From an uncultured Desulfosarcina sp. (GTDB lineage: Bacteria > Desulfobacterota > Desulfobacteria > Desulfobacterales > Desulfosarcinaceae), in NCBI GenBank assembly GCA_963674945.2, contig CAXXWQ010000003.1, positions 512,001 through 576,000 on the forward strand: a stretch of DNA of 64,000 bases. The letters are read 5' to 3'. The notes under the pieces were generated by a model, which saw nothing but the letters and a program-made list of their open reading frames with translations, had not been told where the DNA came from and did no database searches. Below, one piece after another: positions 54,657 through 63,772 of the stretch (within the stretch, counting starts at the first letter, position 1; every line of letters begins with the position of its first letter). The translations under genes and the position numbers were made by a program.

Positions 54657-54845
54657 ATGAAGAAGAAGCCGCTATTTCCCAAGCATGCCACCTGTGTGAG
54701 TCAAACCGACTTCTTGCGCAATTTTCGTTGTCGACACTATGATTCCTGCATGGCAAAAGCCACCATTCAGAACTGTTTCCTAAGTTGTGTGCTTTGTGGG
54801 TTTCGATTTTATCGGGGGGGAGAAATTATTGAACCAGTCGTCTGA
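54657..54845 (+). CDS. small Cys-rich protein (62 aa)
   Basis: AGGAG RBS; RNFRCRHYDSC...SCVLC. Confidence 0.6.
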   Translation: MKKKPLFPKHATCVSQTDFLRNFRCRHYDSCMAKATIQNCFLSCVLCGFRFYRGGEIIEPVV

Positions 54846-55410
54846 TCAAACCAAAGATCGATGATCGCCGTTTTTGCATAAACGTGTCGTCGGTATGTTT
54901 TGCAACGAGATCGGGTCTGCGCTCCAGAACCAAACGGGCCGCCATCTCGGTCGCCTGGGCCGTTAATTGGGCACATTGCCGGAAATGGGCCTTCCTGTCG
55001 TGCCGGACCTTCCGGGTGAGTGCCCGGCAGCAGGTGGCGCCATTGGCAACTTTGAATTCATCATGCAACCTTCTGGCGCTTTGGCGCATGGCGCTTCGGT
55101 GCCCATGACGATGCTCCTTTCCCAGTAACAGTCCGGAGGCCATTACAGCACCGCTCAATGCGCCACAAAGGCAACCGCTTTCGCCCATGGCGGCGCTAAA
55201 GGGTGCCGCCATGGCGATGGCCTGGGTATCGGTGAGCCCTCCGTCCAGGCCCTGGTTGATTGCCGACAGTACCGCTTCGGTGCAAAGCATCTGCTTGGTC
55301 TGATATAAGTGAAAGGCATGATCCCTGATACGACGAATCAGTTCTTCGGTCTTCTCCGGCAGCGCTTTTTCGTTGCCATTGATTGATCTTTTCACGGTAT
55401 GTCCATCCAT
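54826..55410 (-). CDS. C-GCAxxG-C-C family redox protein
   Basis: CTEAV, GCLCGALSG, TCCR and a further Cys; start uncertain. Confidence 0.88.
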   Translation of the reverse strand: MDGHTVKRSINGNEKALPEKTEELIRRIRDHAFHLYQTKQMLCTEAVLSAINQGLDGGLTDTQAIAMAAPFSAAMGESGCLCGALSGAVMASGLLLGKEHRHGHRSAMRQSARRLHDEFKVANGATCCRALTRKVRHDRKAHFRQCAQLTAQATEMAARLVLERRPDLVAKHTDDTFMQKRRSSIFGLIRRLVQ

Positions 55411-55977: not shown

Positions 55978-57060
55978 ATGAAAAATTTTTTTGCCAGCCG
56001 CTGGGGTATCATCAGCGTCGGCGCGATTATCGGTATTCTGGCCGCTTTTTTACAGAAGTTGGGCAATCCCGGGAACATGGGCATCTGCGTAGCCTGTTTC
56101 GAACGCGACATTGCCGGCGCCCTGGGTCTGCACCGGGCCGCCGTGGTACAATACATCCGTCCTGAAATTATCGGGTTCGTAATCGGTTCGATGATCGCCG
56201 CCTATATGTTCAAGGAGTTCCGGCCCCGGGTGGGTTCGGCTCCCATCGTCCGCTTCATTCTGGGCGCCTTTGCCATGATCGGGGCACTGGTCTTTCTCGG
56301 ATGTCCATGGCGGGCGGTGTTGCGACTGGCCGGCGGAGACGGAAACGCCATCTTCGGGTTGCTGGGTCTGACCTTCGGCATCTGGATCGGCACACTTTTT
56401 CTTAAAAATGGCTACAACCTGGGCCGCACCCAGAGCACCCACACCACGGTGGGATGGATGCTGCCCTTGATCATGCTGGGTTTTCTGATTCTCATGCTGA
56501 TTTATCCCCAGATCGAGGGCCAAGATAAAAGCGGCGTTCTTTTTTACAGCCTCAAGGGACCCGGCGCCATGCACGCCCCGCTCATTATTGCCCTGATCGT
56601 GGGATTGGGTATCGGATTTCTGGCCCAGCGCAGCCGGTTCTGCACCATGGGCGCCATCCGGGATCTTGTATTGTTCGGCCAGATTCACCTGCTGACCGGA
56701 TTCATCAGCCTGGTGGTTTTCGCTTTCCTGACGAACCTGGCCCTGGGTCAGTTCCATCCGGGCTTTGCCGGTCAACCCGTGGCCCATACCATGCAAGTCT
56801 GGAACTTCTCCGGAATGGTCCTGGCCGGTCTGGCCTTCGCCCTTGCCGGCGGTTGCCCCGGCCGACAGTTGTTTCTCTCCGGTGAAGGCGACGGTGATGC
56901 CGCGGTATTTGTGATGGGCATGATCGTCGGAGCCGGGTTCGCCCACAATTTCGGGCTGGCCAGTTCTCCCAAGGGCGTCGGCCCCCATGGCATCGCCGCC
57001 GTGGTTGTCGGACTGGTCGTATGCCTGTTCATTGGATTTACCATGCGGAAAAAGGCGTAA
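55978..57060 (+). CDS. yedE: YedE family putative selenium/sulfur transporter
   Basis: GNPGNMGICVACFERDIAGALG, YIRPE, LGCP, QRSRFC, GGCP. Confidence 0.92.
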   Translation: MKNFFASRWGIISVGAIIGILAAFLQKLGNPGNMGICVACFERDIAGALGLHRAAVVQYIRPEIIGFVIGSMIAAYMFKEFRPRVGSAPIVRFILGAFAMIGALVFLGCPWRAVLRLAGGDGNAIFGLLGLTFGIWIGTLFLKNGYNLGRTQSTHTTVGWMLPLIMLGFLILMLIYPQIEGQDKSGVLFYSLKGPGAMHAPLIIALIVGLGIGFLAQRSRFCTMGAIRDLVLFGQIHLLTGFISLVVFAFLTNLALGQFHPGFAGQPVAHTMQVWNFSGMVLAGLAFALAGGCPGRQLFLSGEGDGDAAVFVMGMIVGAGFAHNFGLASSPKGVGPHGIAAVVVGLVVCLFIGFTMRKKA

Positions 57061-57071
57061 GGAGAATAATC

Positions 57072-57290
57072 ATGAGCACAACGATCGATGCACGCGGATT
57101 ATCGTGCCCGCAACCGGTACTGATGACCCTGGACGAGATCAAAAAGGGCAGTGAATCGGAAATCGTCGTCCTGGTGGACACGGACACCTCCAAGGAAAAT
57201 GTGTCCCGCGCCGCCCAAAGCCAGGGGTGCACCGTTACTAGCGTAGAGCCGGACGGCGATGGCTATCGGGTTCTGATTGCCAGGGCCTAA
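57072..57290 (+). CDS. TusA/YedF family sulfur(selenium) carrier
   Basis: IDARGLSCPQPV. Confidence 0.9.
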   Translation: MSTTIDARGLSCPQPVLMTLDEIKKGSESEIVVLVDTDTSKENVSRAAQSQGCTVTSVEPDGDGYRVLIARA

Positions 57291-57326
57291 AACAGGCGTT
57301 TCACCTTTCTTGAGAAAAACTGTAAG

Positions 57327-57884
57327 ATGGGATTTTTCAATTTTTTAGATCGCACCATCAAAAAAACGAAACCGGCGGTGGTCCATCAGGAAGACCGGGG
57401 CTTTCTGGTATTTGAAAACACCAGCGAAGTCATCCAGGCCGAAAACCTGCTCAAACAGGAGGGATGGACCGTCCAGGTGATGGGACCACCGCCGGAGATC
57501 CACTCGGGATGCGATCTGGTGATCACCTTCCCCCTGATCGAGGAACTGAATATCCTGCGGCTGCTCGACAAAAACCGCCTTCCGCCCCTGTCGGTTGTAC
57601 CGGTCACCGGTCCATTGCTCGAACCGGTCGGCATTTACCAGGTCAAGGACTTCGGCGAATATCTTATGGTACGCGCGGCCAACATGAAGCTGGTGGTTGA
57701 GAAAAAAAACCGTAAAATTGTCAATGTTTCCGGCGGCGGCTGCCCGGATGTACCCTATCTGGCGCATAAGATGGTCGGCAAAACGATCGATGAAGCACCC
57801 CGACCCCGCGAGATCGGCCACACCCTGTGCGGCTATGCCCTGGAACTGGCGTTCGAGGAGATACTGGTTCGATGCGCGCCGTAG
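57327..57884 (+). CDS. DUF3343 domain protein with Cys-containing C-terminal extension
   Basis: FENTSEVIQAE, PPEIHSGCDL, SGGGCPDVP, TLCGY. Confidence 0.8.
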   Translation: MGFFNFLDRTIKKTKPAVVHQEDRGFLVFENTSEVIQAENLLKQEGWTVQVMGPPPEIHSGCDLVITFPLIEELNILRLLDKNRLPPLSVVPVTGPLLEPVGIYQVKDFGEYLMVRAANMKLVVEKKNRKIVNVSGGGCPDVPYLAHKMVGKTIDEAPRPREIGHTLCGYALELAFEEILVRCAP

Positions 57885-58729
57885 TCGGAACCGTACCGTT
57901 CGAGGATTTTCCCCTCACCGTGGGCGAAGTTTCCCTCTCCGGCCAGGACCTGCACATCGGCGGACACACCATACCCGTCAACCGCGGCACGCCTGCCCTG
58001 CTGGCGGCAATGGTCCGGGCATTGGAAGTGATCGGCAACGGAAAGGTTACCGGTTTTCTCGTCGGAGACATCGGCCTGGGAAAGGGCAGCCGGCGACTGT
58101 ATGAAATGTTGGCCCGCGATCTGGGCGGATACGACCTTGAGAGTCTGACCTTCCACTACCTACAGCCGGATGTGGACTGGCACAATCGGGTACTCTTTGC
58201 TGTGGACGAAATGCCGCGGCGACCGCTGCTGATCGCCGACGCCGGGTTCATGTACGCGGCCAAGATGAGCGGTAGCGCACCCGAATACGATCTGTTTACG
58301 CCGGATGCGGGTGAGTTGGCCTTTCTGGCCGACGAAGCGGCCCCCCACCCTTTTTACACCCGCGGCTTCATTCTGCACGATGAAAACAAGGTCCCCGATC
58401 TGATTCGCCGGGCCTATTCACACGACAATGCGGCCCGCCATCTGCTGGTCAAGGGAGAAATCGACCGTTTGGCAGATCGTTCGGGCATTTTGAAAAGCGT
58501 CGACGGGCCGTCCGTGGACGCCATGGAAGCCATGGGCGGCACCGGCGACACGCTGACCGGGCTGGCCGCCGCGTTGATTGGTACCAACGGTCTTTCCCTG
58601 TCCGAAGCAGTCATCGCAGCGGCGCGGATTAACCGCGAGGCCGGCGCGTTGGCCAATTTGAGCCCGGCCAGCCAGGTCGCCGATCTGATCCGTTATTTTT
58701 CCCACGCCATGGAAAAAGTCCTGGGATAG
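57872..58729 (+). CDS. ribokinase-fold / NAD(P)HX dehydratase-like kinase
   Basis: IADAG, FTPDAGE, LLVKG, GGTGDTL anion hole. Confidence 0.8.
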   Translation: MRAVVGTVPFEDFPLTVGEVSLSGQDLHIGGHTIPVNRGTPALLAAMVRALEVIGNGKVTGFLVGDIGLGKGSRRLYEMLARDLGGYDLESLTFHYLQPDVDWHNRVLFAVDEMPRRPLLIADAGFMYAAKMSGSAPEYDLFTPDAGELAFLADEAAPHPFYTRGFILHDENKVPDLIRRAYSHDNAARHLLVKGEIDRLADRSGILKSVDGPSVDAMEAMGGTGDTLTGLAAALIGTNGLSLSEAVIAAARINREAGALANLSPASQVADLIRYFSHAMEKVLG

Positions 58730-58735
58730 TTTGCT

Positions 58736-60658
58736 TCACGATTTCGGTTGCCGCAACACGCGTTTATCGCCCCTTCGGGTGGTAAACCCGATTTCATCAA
58801 GGTAATCGAAAACATGAACACAACCCCATCGACCATACCCCAGAATGGCCTTGCAATCGGACAGTCTGACACACCCCTTTTCATGGATGAACTGCTCGAC
58901 ACGGTCCTTGATGTCGTCGAGAGCATCGAGGGACAGGAAACGCTGGTCATTGAGCCGGATCAACTTCTTCCGGTTGTCGAGGTAATTGAGAAGTTTTTGT
59001 ATCGTCTCTTTTTCGTGGATCCTGTTGTGTTTTTTCCAGAAGGTATCGGCGCTGAAGGGGTTCAGACCCGACACTTTGGCGAAGTCCAGCAATTGATTCA
59101 GCAGTTGATCCTGGTCCGCAGACAGGTTTGCCGCCCCTTGTCCGGGCACATACCCACCACCGATCTTCTCCAGTTTCCCCCCCAGACAAAGGGATTCCAC
59201 CAGTTGAACAAAGAGAAAATCGTCCATGGAGTCATCGAGCAGATTCATCAATTCGATCCGGTTGATGTTTTTTTTCAGCGGGTTTTCACGGAATACCGAT
59301 TCGATGACACGAAGCATTTTCTTTCTGATCCGCTCGAATTTCTCCTTTGGATAGGCTCCATGGCGCTTGAGGTAGACAAAAGCCCCGGACTGTACACGGG
59401 CACTGATCTGGACCTGGAACGCTTTCTGGGAAAGACCGGTTATTTGGGACAAGGTACGGGCATCGGTGTAGGTTTCGACGACCGCGTCGAAATAGGTGTC
59501 GACGAAGCCGGCGATGTCTCCGGTTCGAAGCGCCTCCAGATAAGGGAGGATACGCTGCTTCTTGGCCTGACGGAACTTTTCCGATGGAATTTCCAGTACC
59601 TTGCCACCGCCTAAGACCATGGGCAAATTCATGGCCACAATCACGAACCGGTCCCTTGGAAAAACAAAAAGCGGCCGTTGCAACCGAAACTGCGTCAGGG
59701 CCCGGTCACCGGGATCGAGCCGCGCCTTTTCCATGAGCACGACCATGGCGCCCACGACGGCAGTACCGATATACAGCTTCACCCGCTGTCGATTCTTGAG
59801 TCCGAAGACCGCAGATGGAATAAGGTGCAGGTCGACATTTAACAGGTAGCCACCCTCTCCTGCGTCCAAAGCGGCCACCAGCATTCCTCTTTTCAAGGAT
59901 CCGGCAGGCACATTGTGCAGATTCAAACCCACCCGCTGACCGGCAAAAACCTCTTTAACGGGCTGATTGTGGGATTCCATGGATCGGATCCGTGTAAAGA
60001 TCCTTCCGGGTTGAACCAACACCGTGTCGTTGACGGCAGCCGAACCCGAAGCCACGGTGCCGCTCACCACCGTCCCCAATCCAACGATGCGCTTGATGCG
60101 GTCGATCCAGAGCCGAAAGTCTCCGCCGCCATCTTTTTTCGGTAGCGATCGCACCTGTGCTTCCAGGAAGTCAAGAATTTCGGTGACACCTTGACCGGTC
60201 TTTGTGGAGAATCGAACAACGGGTCGACCATGGAGAAAAGAATCGGGGAGAATTTCCTGCAGTTCCAACTCAGCGAGGTCGAGTGTCTCCTCATCCACCA
60301 GATCGGCCTTGGTGAGGACGCAAACGCCTCCTCTGGCACCGAAAAACTTTAAAATTTCCAAATGCTCCCGGCTCTGGGGCATGACGCCGTCGTCGGCGGC
60401 GATCACGAAAATAGCCAGATCGACACCACTCAATCCGCGAATGGTATTTTTCAGATAATCGGTATGCCCGGGTACGTCCACCAGGGCGACCTGCCGTCCG
60501 CTGGGAAGAACCAGCGGCGCCACGCCGGACTCGATGGAGAGTCCACGCTCTTTTTCCACCTTCATGCGGTCGGTGTCGATGCCGCTCAGGGCCTTGACCA
60601 ACGATGTCTTTCCATGGTCGACGTGGCCGGCGACACCGATGGTGATTCCCTTTTCCAT
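58736..60658 (-). CDS. selB: SelB-family elongation factor, divergent (probable SelB*)
   Basis: GHVDHGKT, DVPGH, TKAD, IDR, GQR and a winged-helix C-terminus; atypical ESGVAP, DRIKR and GRWG motifs. Confidence 0.92.
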   Translation of the reverse strand: MEKGITIGVAGHVDHGKTSLVKALSGIDTDRMKVEKERGLSIESGVAPLVLPSGRQVALVDVPGHTDYLKNTIRGLSGVDLAIFVIAADDGVMPQSREHLEILKFFGARGGVCVLTKADLVDEETLDLAELELQEILPDSFLHGRPVVRFSTKTGQGVTEILDFLEAQVRSLPKKDGGGDFRLWIDRIKRIVGLGTVVSGTVASGSAAVNDTVLVQPGRIFTRIRSMESHNQPVKEVFAGQRVGLNLHNVPAGSLKRGMLVAALDAGEGGYLLNVDLHLIPSAVFGLKNRQRVKLYIGTAVVGAMVVLMEKARLDPGDRALTQFRLQRPLFVFPRDRFVIVAMNLPMVLGGGKVLEIPSEKFRQAKKQRILPYLEALRTGDIAGFVDTYFDAVVETYTDARTLSQITGLSQKAFQVQISARVQSGAFVYLKRHGAYPKEKFERIRKKMLRVIESVFRENPLKKNINRIELMNLLDDSMDDFLFVQLVESLCLGGKLEKIGGGYVPGQGAANLSADQDQLLNQLLDFAKVSGLNPFSADTFWKKHNRIHEKETIQKLLNYLDNRKKLIRLNDQRFLSLDALDDIKDRVEQFIHEKGCVRLSDCKAILGYGRWGCVHVFDYLDEIGFTTRRGDKRVLRQPKS

Positions 60659-60701
60659 GATCGAAATCCTTACCGCTGGGTCATGACGTTTGTATTCGTG
60701 A

Positions 60702-60793
60702 TGGAAGGGGCAAGGGGAATCGAACCTCCTCCCCGCTTTTCAGACGAGGCCAGCGGTTTTGAAGACCGTGGGGTGCCCAGCACCATTGCCCCT
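60702..60793 (-). tRNA. UCA-anticodon tRNA with 8/4 fold, A1:U72 and U73; probable SelC* tRNA-Cys(UCA) rather than canonical tRNA-Sec
   Basis: AGGGGCAA/UUGCCCCU acceptor stem, then U-CCA; D-arm GGUGC-UGG-GCACC; anticodon loop CUUCAAA; long variable arm; T-arm GG(A)GG-UUCGAUU-CCCC. Confidence 0.88.
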
Positions 60794-61481: not shown

Positions 61482-62813
61482 ATGAATGAAACAGAGGTAA
61501 TAAAAATTCAATCGAATCGAAAAAATGCTTTCATCGAAAAGGTCAAAGAGATTCTTCCCGATGGTGGGAACCTGAATCTGTGTCTCACCTGCGGAGCCTG
61601 TGCGGCGGGTTGCCCGGCCACCGGACTGGAGGGCATGGATCCCCGAAAATTCCTTCGGCTGGCGGCCCTGGGCCTGGATGAAGAGATCACCAAGCATCCC
61701 TGGGTGTGGATGTGTTCCATGTGTGCCCGTTGCACCTATGTCTGCCCCATGAGTATCAATATCTCAGGATTGATTTTCGAGGCACGGAAGTTATGGCCGC
61801 GGGAGGAACGGCCCAAAGGGATATTGGGATCCTGCGACATGGCGCTTCGCAACGAAAGCGGCAGTGCAATGGGAACGCCACCCGAGGATTTCACCTTTGT
61901 GGTGGAAGACGTACTCGAAGAAGTACGCGAGACCCAACCGGGCTGGGAAGATCTTCAGGCACCCCTCGAAAAGCAGGGTGCCCATTTCTTCGTCAGCCAG
62001 AACTCTCGGGAACCGGTAACGGAACCCGACGAGATGGTACCACTGTGGAAAATCTTCCACTTGGCAGGCATCGACTGGACTTACAGCAACCAGGCCTGGG
62101 GCGGCGAAAACTACTGCATGTTCCTGGCAGACGATGAGAACTGGAAAAGGGTCGCCAACAATACACTGAAACGGGCCGAAGAGCTGGGTTGTAAGGTTTA
62201 TTTGAATACCGAATGCGGCCACTCCACCTTTTCCGTGTGGGAAGCGAACAGACGCTACGGCATTGACTCTCCGCTGGAAATCGCCCCAATGGTGGCCTAT
62301 TACTATGAGTGGATCAAATCGGGAAAACTCAAAGTCAGTTCCGACTGGAACAAAGACCGGAAAATCAAGTTCACGGTCCAGGATCCCTGCAACCAGATCC
62401 GGAAGAGCTATGGGGACGAGCAGGCCGATAAGATGCGCTACGTGGTCAAGGCCTGCGTGGGAGAAGAAAACTTCGTGGAAATGTACCCCAACAAGTCCAA
62501 CAACTTCTGCTGCGGCGGCGGTGGCGGATATTTGCAGTCCGGCTACACCCAGGCGCGCCTTGCCTACGGAAAGATCAAATCCGACCAGATCATCACCACC
62601 GGCGCGGATTATTGCCTGACGCCCTGCCACAACTGCCATGCACAGATTCACGAACTGTCCCATCATTATGGTGGAAACTTTCAAGTCACCCATATGTGGA
62701 CGATCATCGCACTATCGCTTGGCATTCTGGCCGAAAACGAGAGAGAATATCTGGGAGACGATCTGAAGGATGTGTGGCTGCCCGGCGAACCGGGAACGCC
62801 GAGTCCATTTTAG
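61482..62813 (+). CDS. HdrD-like (Fe-S)-binding protein (4Fe-4S dicluster plus CCG domain)
   Basis: CLTCGAC...CP, CSMCARC...CP, TECGH, QDPC, CCGGGGG, PCHNC. Confidence 0.9.
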   Translation: MNETEVIKIQSNRKNAFIEKVKEILPDGGNLNLCLTCGACAAGCPATGLEGMDPRKFLRLAALGLDEEITKHPWVWMCSMCARCTYVCPMSINISGLIFEARKLWPREERPKGILGSCDMALRNESGSAMGTPPEDFTFVVEDVLEEVRETQPGWEDLQAPLEKQGAHFFVSQNSREPVTEPDEMVPLWKIFHLAGIDWTYSNQAWGGENYCMFLADDENWKRVANNTLKRAEELGCKVYLNTECGHSTFSVWEANRRYGIDSPLEIAPMVAYYYEWIKSGKLKVSSDWNKDRKIKFTVQDPCNQIRKSYGDEQADKMRYVVKACVGEENFVEMYPNKSNNFCCGGGGGYLQSGYTQARLAYGKIKSDQIITTGADYCLTPCHNCHAQIHELSHHYGGNFQVTHMWTIIALSLGILAENEREYLGDDLKDVWLPGEPGTPSPF

Positions 62814-62924: not shown

Positions 62925-63437
62925 ATGATAGAAAACATACACGTAGATCCCAAACTGGAAAAATGTCTGACGGTATTGGAGAGGGGTGGCCGGCGTTCCT
63001 GTTTGGCCGCGGATCGGGTACGGTCGATCATCGCCGAACTCAAGCAGGGAGAAATGCCAACCCATGAAATATGTTCGTTCACCAAAAACGGAGAGGCCCG
63101 CATCAAAGGATGCCGGAAGTACGACCTTGGCGCCGGCTATCGTCTGGTCACATTGAAACGGGGAAACGACCTGTACCTGCTATACGCAGGAACCCACGAC
63201 GAGTGCGGTCGCTGGGTTGAGAACAATCGGGAACAATTGGCCTTGGAAATGATCGGTCAGCGCAGTACCACCATCAGGCGTACCACGGCGAAATGCGCTT
63301 CAAAGACAAGCTGCCGGGGTCTGCCGGATCAGGAACAGGAAGAGGAGGAGGATTGGATCCCCCCCCTGGATGATCAAGACCTTCGGATCATTTTTAAAGG
63401 ATTGATCCAAAGCGTCGGCGAAAAGTCCAACCAATGA
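62925..63437 (+). CDS. hypothetical protein with RelE/ParE-like core
   Basis: RIKGCRKYDLGAGYRLV...LLYAGTHDE and an acidic tail. Confidence 0.65.
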   Translation: MIENIHVDPKLEKCLTVLERGGRRSCLAADRVRSIIAELKQGEMPTHEICSFTKNGEARIKGCRKYDLGAGYRLVTLKRGNDLYLLYAGTHDECGRWVENNREQLALEMIGQRSTTIRRTTAKCASKTSCRGLPDQEQEEEEDWIPPLDDQDLRIIFKGLIQSVGEKSNQ

Positions 63438-63457
63438 GCTGCAATAAAGGAGAAAAA

Positions 63458-63772
63458 ATGATCAACGTCACTCAAGCCGCCATCGATGCATTAACCGACT
63501 ATTTCCGTACCGCCGAACGGAAACCGGTACGGATTTTTCTGACCCAGGGGTGTGGTGGCCAACGTCTGGCAATGGCCCTGGACGAAACCAAGGAAAGCGA
63601 TTCGGTGTGCACAGCCGGTGATCACCAGATCATCATGGACCGGACGCTTTTGGAGGAGGCGAAGCCCGTGGACGTGGATTATTCGGACATGGGGTTCAAG
63701 ATCGCCTCCAATCTCGAATTGGGCGGCGGTTGCCAAAGTTGCGGAACCGCCGGAAGCTGCTGTTCATCGTAA
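63458..63772 (+). CDS. IscA/HesB-like protein (Cys form)
   Basis: AGGAG RBS; VRIFLTQGCGGQRLAMALDE; C-terminal CQSC..SCC. Confidence 0.88.
   Translation: MINVTQAAIDALTDYFRTAERKPVRIFLTQGCGGQRLAMALDETKESDSVCTAGDHQIIMDRTLLEEAKPVDVDYSDMGFKIASNLELGGGCQSCGTAGSCCSS

Follow-up and report, generated by a model that had tools for sequence, protein, structure and literature searches.

The window, a stretch of 64,000 nucleotides from the genome of an uncultured Desulfosarcina sp. (G000), carries on its minus strand a tRNA gene, selC* (positions 60702 to 60793), followed by selB* (58736 to 60658). selC* specifies a cysteine-type tRNA with a UCA anticodon, an encoded CCA end, and a long variable arm. selB* is an unbroken reading frame of 640 amino acids that encodes complete domains 1 to 3 (D1 to D3) and four winged-helix domains, with the P-loop GHVDHGKT and H65 present. 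A sequence-only reading of this DNA had placed the start of selB 43 nt past the 3′ end of the tRNA on the same strand, and the spacer (60659 to 60701, minus strand) is indeed exactly 43 nt; it contains a Shine-Dalgarno-like AAGGA at 60671 to 60667, 8 nt before the ATG. A promoter/terminator scan returned 3 promoter-like and 6 terminator-like sites, with 2.3 and 3.9 expected, and no terminator-like site within the spacer. The spacing alone suggests that selC* and selB* are cotranscribed. Convergent on selB* is a plus-strand operon encoding YedE, a TusA/YedF-like protein, a Se/S-carrier, and a YjeF-like protein (55978 to 58729).

The SelB* protein scored 307 bits against the TIGR00475 selB profile (cutoff, 242) and contains GTP_EFTU, D2, SelB beta-barrel, and SelB-wing_3 domains. 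An AlphaFold model built on a 14-row alignment had a pLDDT of 87.7, and the best fold matches of this predicted structure were full-length SelB (5LZB and 4ZU9) over ~640 columns. The sequence-only reading had taken the gene for a SelB paralogue. The contig also carries a canonical selB (C3:439040), and the two proteins are 32% identical. The Sec machinery of G000 is complete, with canonical selB, selC (G73), selA, and a UGA-coded selD that was recognized by two short motifs only. We surveyed 251 genomes of the order, G000 included, and found SelB*-type matches in 27, all of which had at least two SelB matches. The 28 SelB* rows formed one branch with a support of 100 in a 121-row FastTree and likewise in a quick IQ-TREE, both being quick trees with a midpoint root from which the published SelB* sequences themselves are absent. 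SelB* thus stands outside canonical SelB as a single clade, and the view of the gene as a paralogue is upheld by the phylogeny. One basal factor (locus L058, G165:C4:42122-44171) was left out of both the SelB* and the canonical groups: it lies beside an A1:U72 selC* with a GCA anticodon, and its pocket is canonical (GFA, HERF, DRVF), whereas its fourth winged helix (WH4) is altered. Extra copies also occur, with two selB* and two selC* in G158 (C83 and C57) and two selC* matches each in G047 (C16) and G103.

We conclude that the gene is almost certainly selB*, the elongation factor paired with selC*. This pairing has already been published: Mukai et al. (2017; PMC5389517) gave the name selB* to a second selB located downstream of selC* and stated that SelB* forms one clade. 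The G000 locus is a further example. It resembles the selC*-selB*(-cysS*) systems of Desulfobacterales and Syntrophobacterales, as outlined there and in two reviews (PMC7609411 and PMC11415595), in its 8/4 tRNA with U73, A1:U72, and UCA, and it shares with the systems of Mukai et al. the second selB directly downstream, the single SelB* clade, and the full Sec machinery in the genome. SelB* matches canonical SelB (4ZU9, 5LZB, and 1WSU; PMC4605307) in domain order, fold, P-loop, and catalytic histidine, and also in the Asp, Arg, and His of the pocket and in the Arg, Asp, and Thr-x-Arg core of WH4. It differs from canonical SelB in a Phe-to-Val change at the position of F45, in a Lys at a second invariant Phe, in an EF-Tu-like switch II, in the changes of KNM to KNT and RKY to RWG, and in belonging to a separate clade.

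The four motifs from which a remodeled amino acid pocket and hairpin-binding helix had been proposed read as first given: SGVAP (residues 44 to 48), GHTDYLKNT (64 to 72), IDRIK (185 to 189), and GRWG (609 to 612). The canonical SelB of G000 has LGFAA, GHEKFVKNM, VDRVF, and SRKY in these places. We compared residues between the 28 SelB* rows and 79 diverse SelB rows. The motif changes exceed ordinary variation, but G609 is not distinctive (9 of 72 broad SelB rows share it, as does E. coli SelB with GRKL) and GHTDY lies outside the pocket. The GHTDYLKNT segment (60443 to 60469, minus strand) is switch II, which keeps the catalytic His and resembles GHADYIKNM of G000 EF-Tu.

According to Itoh (2015; PMC4605307), the SelB pocket is made up, in Aquifex aeolicus numbering, of F45, D185, a basic residue at 186, H229, R241, and R30. 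Five of these six are kept in G000 SelB* (D186, R187, H230, R242, and R31). The sixth, an aromatic residue that stacks on a pocket Arg, is replaced by V46 (60521 to 60523, minus strand); position 46 is Ile or Val in all 27 SelB* rows with a residue there and Phe or Tyr in 78 of 79 broad SelB rows. In the D186-R-I-K189 segment (60092 to 60103, minus strand), the pocket Asp and Arg are kept and an invariant Phe has become Lys: position 189 is Phe in 0 of 28 SelB* rows, compared with 79 of 79 broad SelB rows, and is Arg or Lys in 21 of the 28. Position 187 is Gln in 19 of 28 SelB* rows, unlike the G000 copy, which keeps Arg (DR). Conservation across SelB* is otherwise high at D186 (28/28), H230 (28/28), and R242 (26/28). 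Since a basic residue remains at position 187 or 189 in 25 of 28 rows, we read the SelB* pocket as still cationic, and it could hold a thiolate. The proposal of a remodeled pocket thus stands as to the lost aromatics; with D186, R187, H230, R242, and R31 retained, the pocket has been rebuilt only partly. Our literature search found no account of SelB* residues, a subject that Mukai S14/S15 or Vargas-Rodriguez 2018 may cover.

WH4 (approximately residues 590 to 635; 58754 to 58891, minus strand) carries a signature of its own, D-[CS]...GYGR-x-G, together with a conserved YLD..GFT.R. D601 is present in 26 of 27 SelB* rows, followed by Cys or Ser at 602, and GYGR is present in most. R610 is invariant (27/27), and D621, T626, R628, and R633 are retained. 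Position 611 is Lys or Arg in none of 27 SelB* rows, compared with 70 of 72 broad SelB rows; SelB* has Thr, Trp, Ser, or Met there, and then a variable residue. We take the residues of the R-K motif to be SECIS contacts; our literature search found no listing of which WH4 residues touch the SECIS element. On average, WH4 carries less net basic charge in SelB* than in SelB (1.0 versus 2.4); the G000 copy has +3.

Domain identities were computed over 190 pairs from 20 genomes, pairs that are not independent of each other. Identity in WH4 was 0.50 among SelB* and 0.59 among their canonical partners, the smallest gap of the six domains; in D1 the values were 0.55 and 0.79. The dN/dS values, which are rough with dS near saturation, were 0.12 for SelB* against its closest relative (locus L102), 0.12 to 0.29 across SelB* compared with 0.05 to 0.13 for SelB, and 0.10 to 0.29 for WH4, which lay below D1 to D3 in four of the five SelB* pairs that could be measured. 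SelB* evolves 2 to 3.5 times as fast as SelB. The sequence-only reading had allowed that the factor might read no hairpin. Because WH4 is the least relaxed domain, is under purifying selection, and keeps R610, D621, T626, R628, and R633, a loss of hairpin reading by SelB* appears unlikely, and that suggestion is not borne out.

The selC* tRNA of G000 has an 8-bp acceptor stem, A1:U72, and U73, and the gene, with its TCA anticodon, matched Rfam RF01852 at 51.3 bits. Its 8/4 fold has a 4-bp T-stem with a bulged A (the bulge is present in the centroid fold), and free folding was no better than for shuffled sequences (z score, −1.18). Compared by eye, 86 of 92 bases match the selC* of D. biacutus (Mukai 2017 supplement). 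A selC* gene lies within 1.5 kb of selB* at 23 of 27 loci; all of these have UCA and U73, and 19 have A1:U72. Counting the whole genome, 25 of the 27 SelB* genomes have a selC* somewhere. The proposed tie of the factor to a cysteine-type UCA tRNA is thus seen across the order. A comparable case is tRNA-ReC of Desulfotomaculum nigrificans, for which SelB is described as delivering Cys to UGA codons with a SECIS (Vargas-Rodriguez et al. 2018, as cited in PMC11415595 and PMC13582414). The G000 tRNA is likewise a tRNA-Sec-like cysteine tRNA that a SelB would deliver to such codons; unlike tRNA-ReC, which has a GCA anticodon, it has UCA and a separate SelB paralogue next to it. G000 has two tRNA-Cys(GCA) genes, and the anticodon arm of one of them (G000:C4:529116) is unusual in sequence.

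The charging enzyme described for A1:U72/UCA tRNAs by Mukai et al. (PMC5389517) is cysS*. A PF01406 search found no cysS* in G000, and the convergent operon follows selB*, with only 6 nt separating its stop from that of selB*, too little space for a cysS* in between. In this G000 differs from the selC*-selB*-cysS* subgroup, with no cysS* downstream and none found elsewhere in the genome. Two CysRS genes were found, an ordinary (canonical) one and a fusion of cysteine synthase with CysRS of 760 amino acids (G000:C1:209699, locus L005), and the PTVS motif is absent from both. A lower-scoring CysRS match in a comparably long frame occurs in most SelB* genomes searched, and two genomes carry, at another site, an additional short CysRS-like gene, which was left out of the CysRS tree.

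An intact cysS follows selB* at only 4 of 27 loci. All four belong to the 6 genomes whose housekeeping CysRS is of a divergent type, and one more of the 6 has a cysS fragment; none of the 20 genomes with the ordinary type has cysS* beside selB* (L078-L087 set). cysS* nests in the ordinary CysRS lineage, two of the four cysS* keeping a full-length C terminus, and the G000 CysRS was sister to cysS* in a quick tree with long branches (support, 87), a placement given no weight here. Among the 19 A1:U72 loci, 15 lack an intact adjacent cysS*, and their tRNAs are 85 to 95% identical to G000 selC*. The majority of SelB* loci, that of G000 included, therefore appear from their sequences to be without cysS*. 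Our literature search found no description of such loci; Mukai S14/S15 or Vargas-Rodriguez 2018 may contain one. Because no cysS* is present in G000, the ordinary CysRS is the likely charger there, by default. Two points weigh against such charging: in PMC5389517, Cys insertion at UGA by a related tRNA in E. coli in vivo used CysRS variants engineered toward CysRS*, and the G000 CysRS has no PTVS motif.

Divergent from selC*-selB* on the plus strand are a gene for an Fe-S/CCG-domain protein (61482 to 62813), a Cys (TGC) isoform of a family that has three UGA-coded paralogues in G000, and a gene for a HesB-like protein (63434 to 63772), a Cys (TGT) isoform with a UGA-coded paralogue at G000:C4:1267959. 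The CCG-domain gene is syntenic with selC*-selB* in 12 of 25 neighborhoods. Just upstream of yedE, a minus-strand gene (54826 to 55410) encodes a (seleno)protein of the C-GCAxxG-C-C family and has no in-frame UGA. Across the 24 other SelB* neighborhoods (362 kb), the HdrA/MvhD/CCG/FdhA motif sites are Cys codons in 35 of 35 cases, and the sole UGA lies in a selD; the same motifs across G000 comprise 11 Cys codons and 13 TGA codons. The 35 sites come from 12 of the 24 neighborhoods and are not independent, since they probably descend from one island. The setting fits a low-selenium module like that of Vhc and Vhu in Methanococcus voltae, where Cys isoforms serve as backups under selenium limitation (cited in PMC2702500). 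As in that case, Cys paralogues of Hdr/Mvh selenoproteins exist beside the Sec forms; unlike it, a replacement by separate genes, G000 has a recoding module located together with such genes. That SelB* loci lie among Cys isoforms of selenoproteins is, as far as the sequences indicate, an addition: our literature search found no description of this neighborhood, with Vargas-Rodriguez 2018 and Mukai S14/S15 lying outside the search.

A read-through scan of G000 reduced 142,968 TGA positions to 1,851 by coding score and to 52 with a paralogue alignment across the TGA. From these came 21 Cys-aligned sites, and motifs and scores added 5, giving 26 in-frame UGA sites. Under a rule that was set after the sites had been viewed (a G-containing loop of 3 to 5 nt, 19 to 26 nt after the UGA), an ordinary SECIS-type hairpin was present at 23 of the 26 sites, compared with 53 of 2,294 other TGA ORF ends and 1 of 14 paralogues with a Cys codon; none of the 9 tested in-frame TGAs that do not align with Cys had one. 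Two of the three misses seem by eye to have a hairpin slightly further out; the third is the family OS_HP2. The loops vary (GGA, GTT, GGTC, and one without G). The sequence-only reading had envisaged unknown targets of its own for the factor; among the 26 in-frame UGA sites, we found none specific to SelB*, in a search of G000 by within-genome paralogues and coding scores that genes without a paralogue can escape.

Two candidates were examined and rejected. OS_HP2, with its G-less hairpin loop, has TGA in 142 of 150 rows among the matches listed, and it was dropped since the UGA is found throughout the order, in many genomes without SelB*. For the N-terminal CxxU of a hydrogenase, 69 of 128 orthologue rows carry TGA, and only 8 of the 69 are from SelB* genomes; the tally was made by hand on the matches listed at approximately 65% identity or more, excluding weaker ones and two partial rows without the site.

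At the OS_HP2 loci (G000:C1:287716-288513, locus L090, and L220-L228), the hairpin after the UGA usually lacks the loop G. One of the seven stop-free copies listed (G103:C178:507-1408) lies 160 nt after a selC* tRNA, and another of the seven (G059:C1:1766445) is ~11 kb from selB*. The hydrogenase of G000 (G000:C4:3305905-3307551, locus L088) is a Group 1-type [NiFe] large subunit whose N-terminal CxxC contains a UGA (CGVU) and whose gene has a SECIS-type hairpin; the position was TGA in 11 of 12 loci checked. Only two Group 1 sequences with such a UGA are mentioned, as exceptions, in PMC13582414; the CGVU form may be much more frequent than has been reported. Four further paralogues (G000:C3:263481, C4:2159564, C4:690939, and C4:687480), which are presumably UroD-like, have a UGA aligned to Cys and a hairpin with a GTT loop. 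A DNA pattern for this SECIS type matched G000 only (1 of 251 genomes), the pattern being too specific.

On balance we favor, at somewhat better than even confidence, the explanation that SelB* is a low-selenium backup that inserts Cys at ordinary Sec codons. In this mechanism, selC* would be charged with Cys, in G000 probably by the ordinary CysRS. SelB*-GTP would then bind the Cys-tRNA through a pocket in which the Asp-Arg core is retained, two aromatics are missing, and one basic residue is new, and WH4 would still dock on the ordinary SECIS hairpins of G000. When Sec-tRNA runs short, Cys would thereby be placed at the Sec codons of proteins such as Hdr, Mvh, Fdh, and SelD, and the locus would form part of a low-selenium module with the Cys isoforms of selenoproteins. 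The intact SelB*, the purifying selection, the full canonical Sec system alongside, the hairpins at 23 of 26 UGA sites, and the Cys isoforms around SelB* loci speak for the backup role; the failure to find cysS* in G000, the SECIS-side residue 611, which is never basic in SelB* and is followed by a variable residue, the faster evolution of SelB*, and a D-to-G change in the P-loop of 5 of 27 SelB* copies speak against it. No SelB* assay was found in the available portions of PMC7609411, PMC11415595, PMC13582414, and PMC8659212.

The same WH4 could instead read a different RNA element or a subset of SECIS elements, giving a second UGA specificity. The conserved SelB* signature in WH4 (D601, [CS]602, GYGR), the loss of Lys 611 in 27 of 27 copies, and the variable SECIS loops of G000, one of them without G, would suit such a specificity. 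We nevertheless consider it unlikely: the search by within-genome paralogues and coding scores, which can miss targets, turned up no UGA gene that tracks SelB*, the 9 tested in-frame TGAs that are not aligned to Cys have no hairpin under the rule, and the variation at position 611 (Thr, Trp, Ser, or Met) looks relaxed rather than retuned. Similarly improbable, in our estimate, is a cell with two UGA channels, Sec via SelB and Cys via SelB*, with charging by the ordinary CysRS. That SelB* acts as an EF-Tu-like, SECIS-independent opal suppressor strikes us as very unlikely. Its EF-Tu-like switch II, the acceptance of the D. biacutus tRNA by E. coli EF-Tu, and the lower mean charge of WH4 point that way, but all four winged helices are retained, WH4 is under purifying selection, and the G000 WH4 has a charge of +3; moreover, general read-through would be costly because ~2,300 of the 5,669 predicted ORFs of G000 end in TGA.

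Two further explanations concern the tRNA and the state of the locus. Bacterial SerRS depends mainly on the variable arm. selC* is shaped like tRNA-Sec, with a long variable arm through which it could be serylated, and SelA could then convert the product to Sec (or Cys), which would make a second Sec route; the absence of cysS* and the retention of the pocket arginines said to bind selenolate agree with this. U73 in 23 of 23 selC*, compared with G73 in canonical selC, argues against serylation, as do the short D arm, the cysteinylation of published relatives, the GCA anticodon of the basal member L058, and the Cys isoforms among the neighbors, and we regard this route as very doubtful. Just as poor, in our view, are the prospects of a decaying relic whose tRNA is uncharged for want of cysS*. 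In its favor, no cysS* was found in G000, and several relatives show signs of decay: the P-loop is changed in 5 of 27, G162 and G201 have R242Q and no selC* match, locus L017 has a frameshifted C terminus, and locus L196 has a cysS fragment with a stop. Against these stand the intact G000 frame (with GHVDHGKT and H65), its dN/dS of 0.12 against L102, and the 15 of 19 A1:U72 loci that keep an 85 to 95% identical tRNA without an intact adjacent cysS*.

The selB* of G000 is an intact copy without cysS*, the majority arrangement among the loci seen. Should WH4 have a new specificity, SelB* and selC* would be a natural orthogonal recoding pair for work on the genetic code. If SelB* is the low-selenium backup that we favor, these sulfate reducers may, depending on the selenium supply, have Cys at the UGA positions of their predicted selenoproteins.
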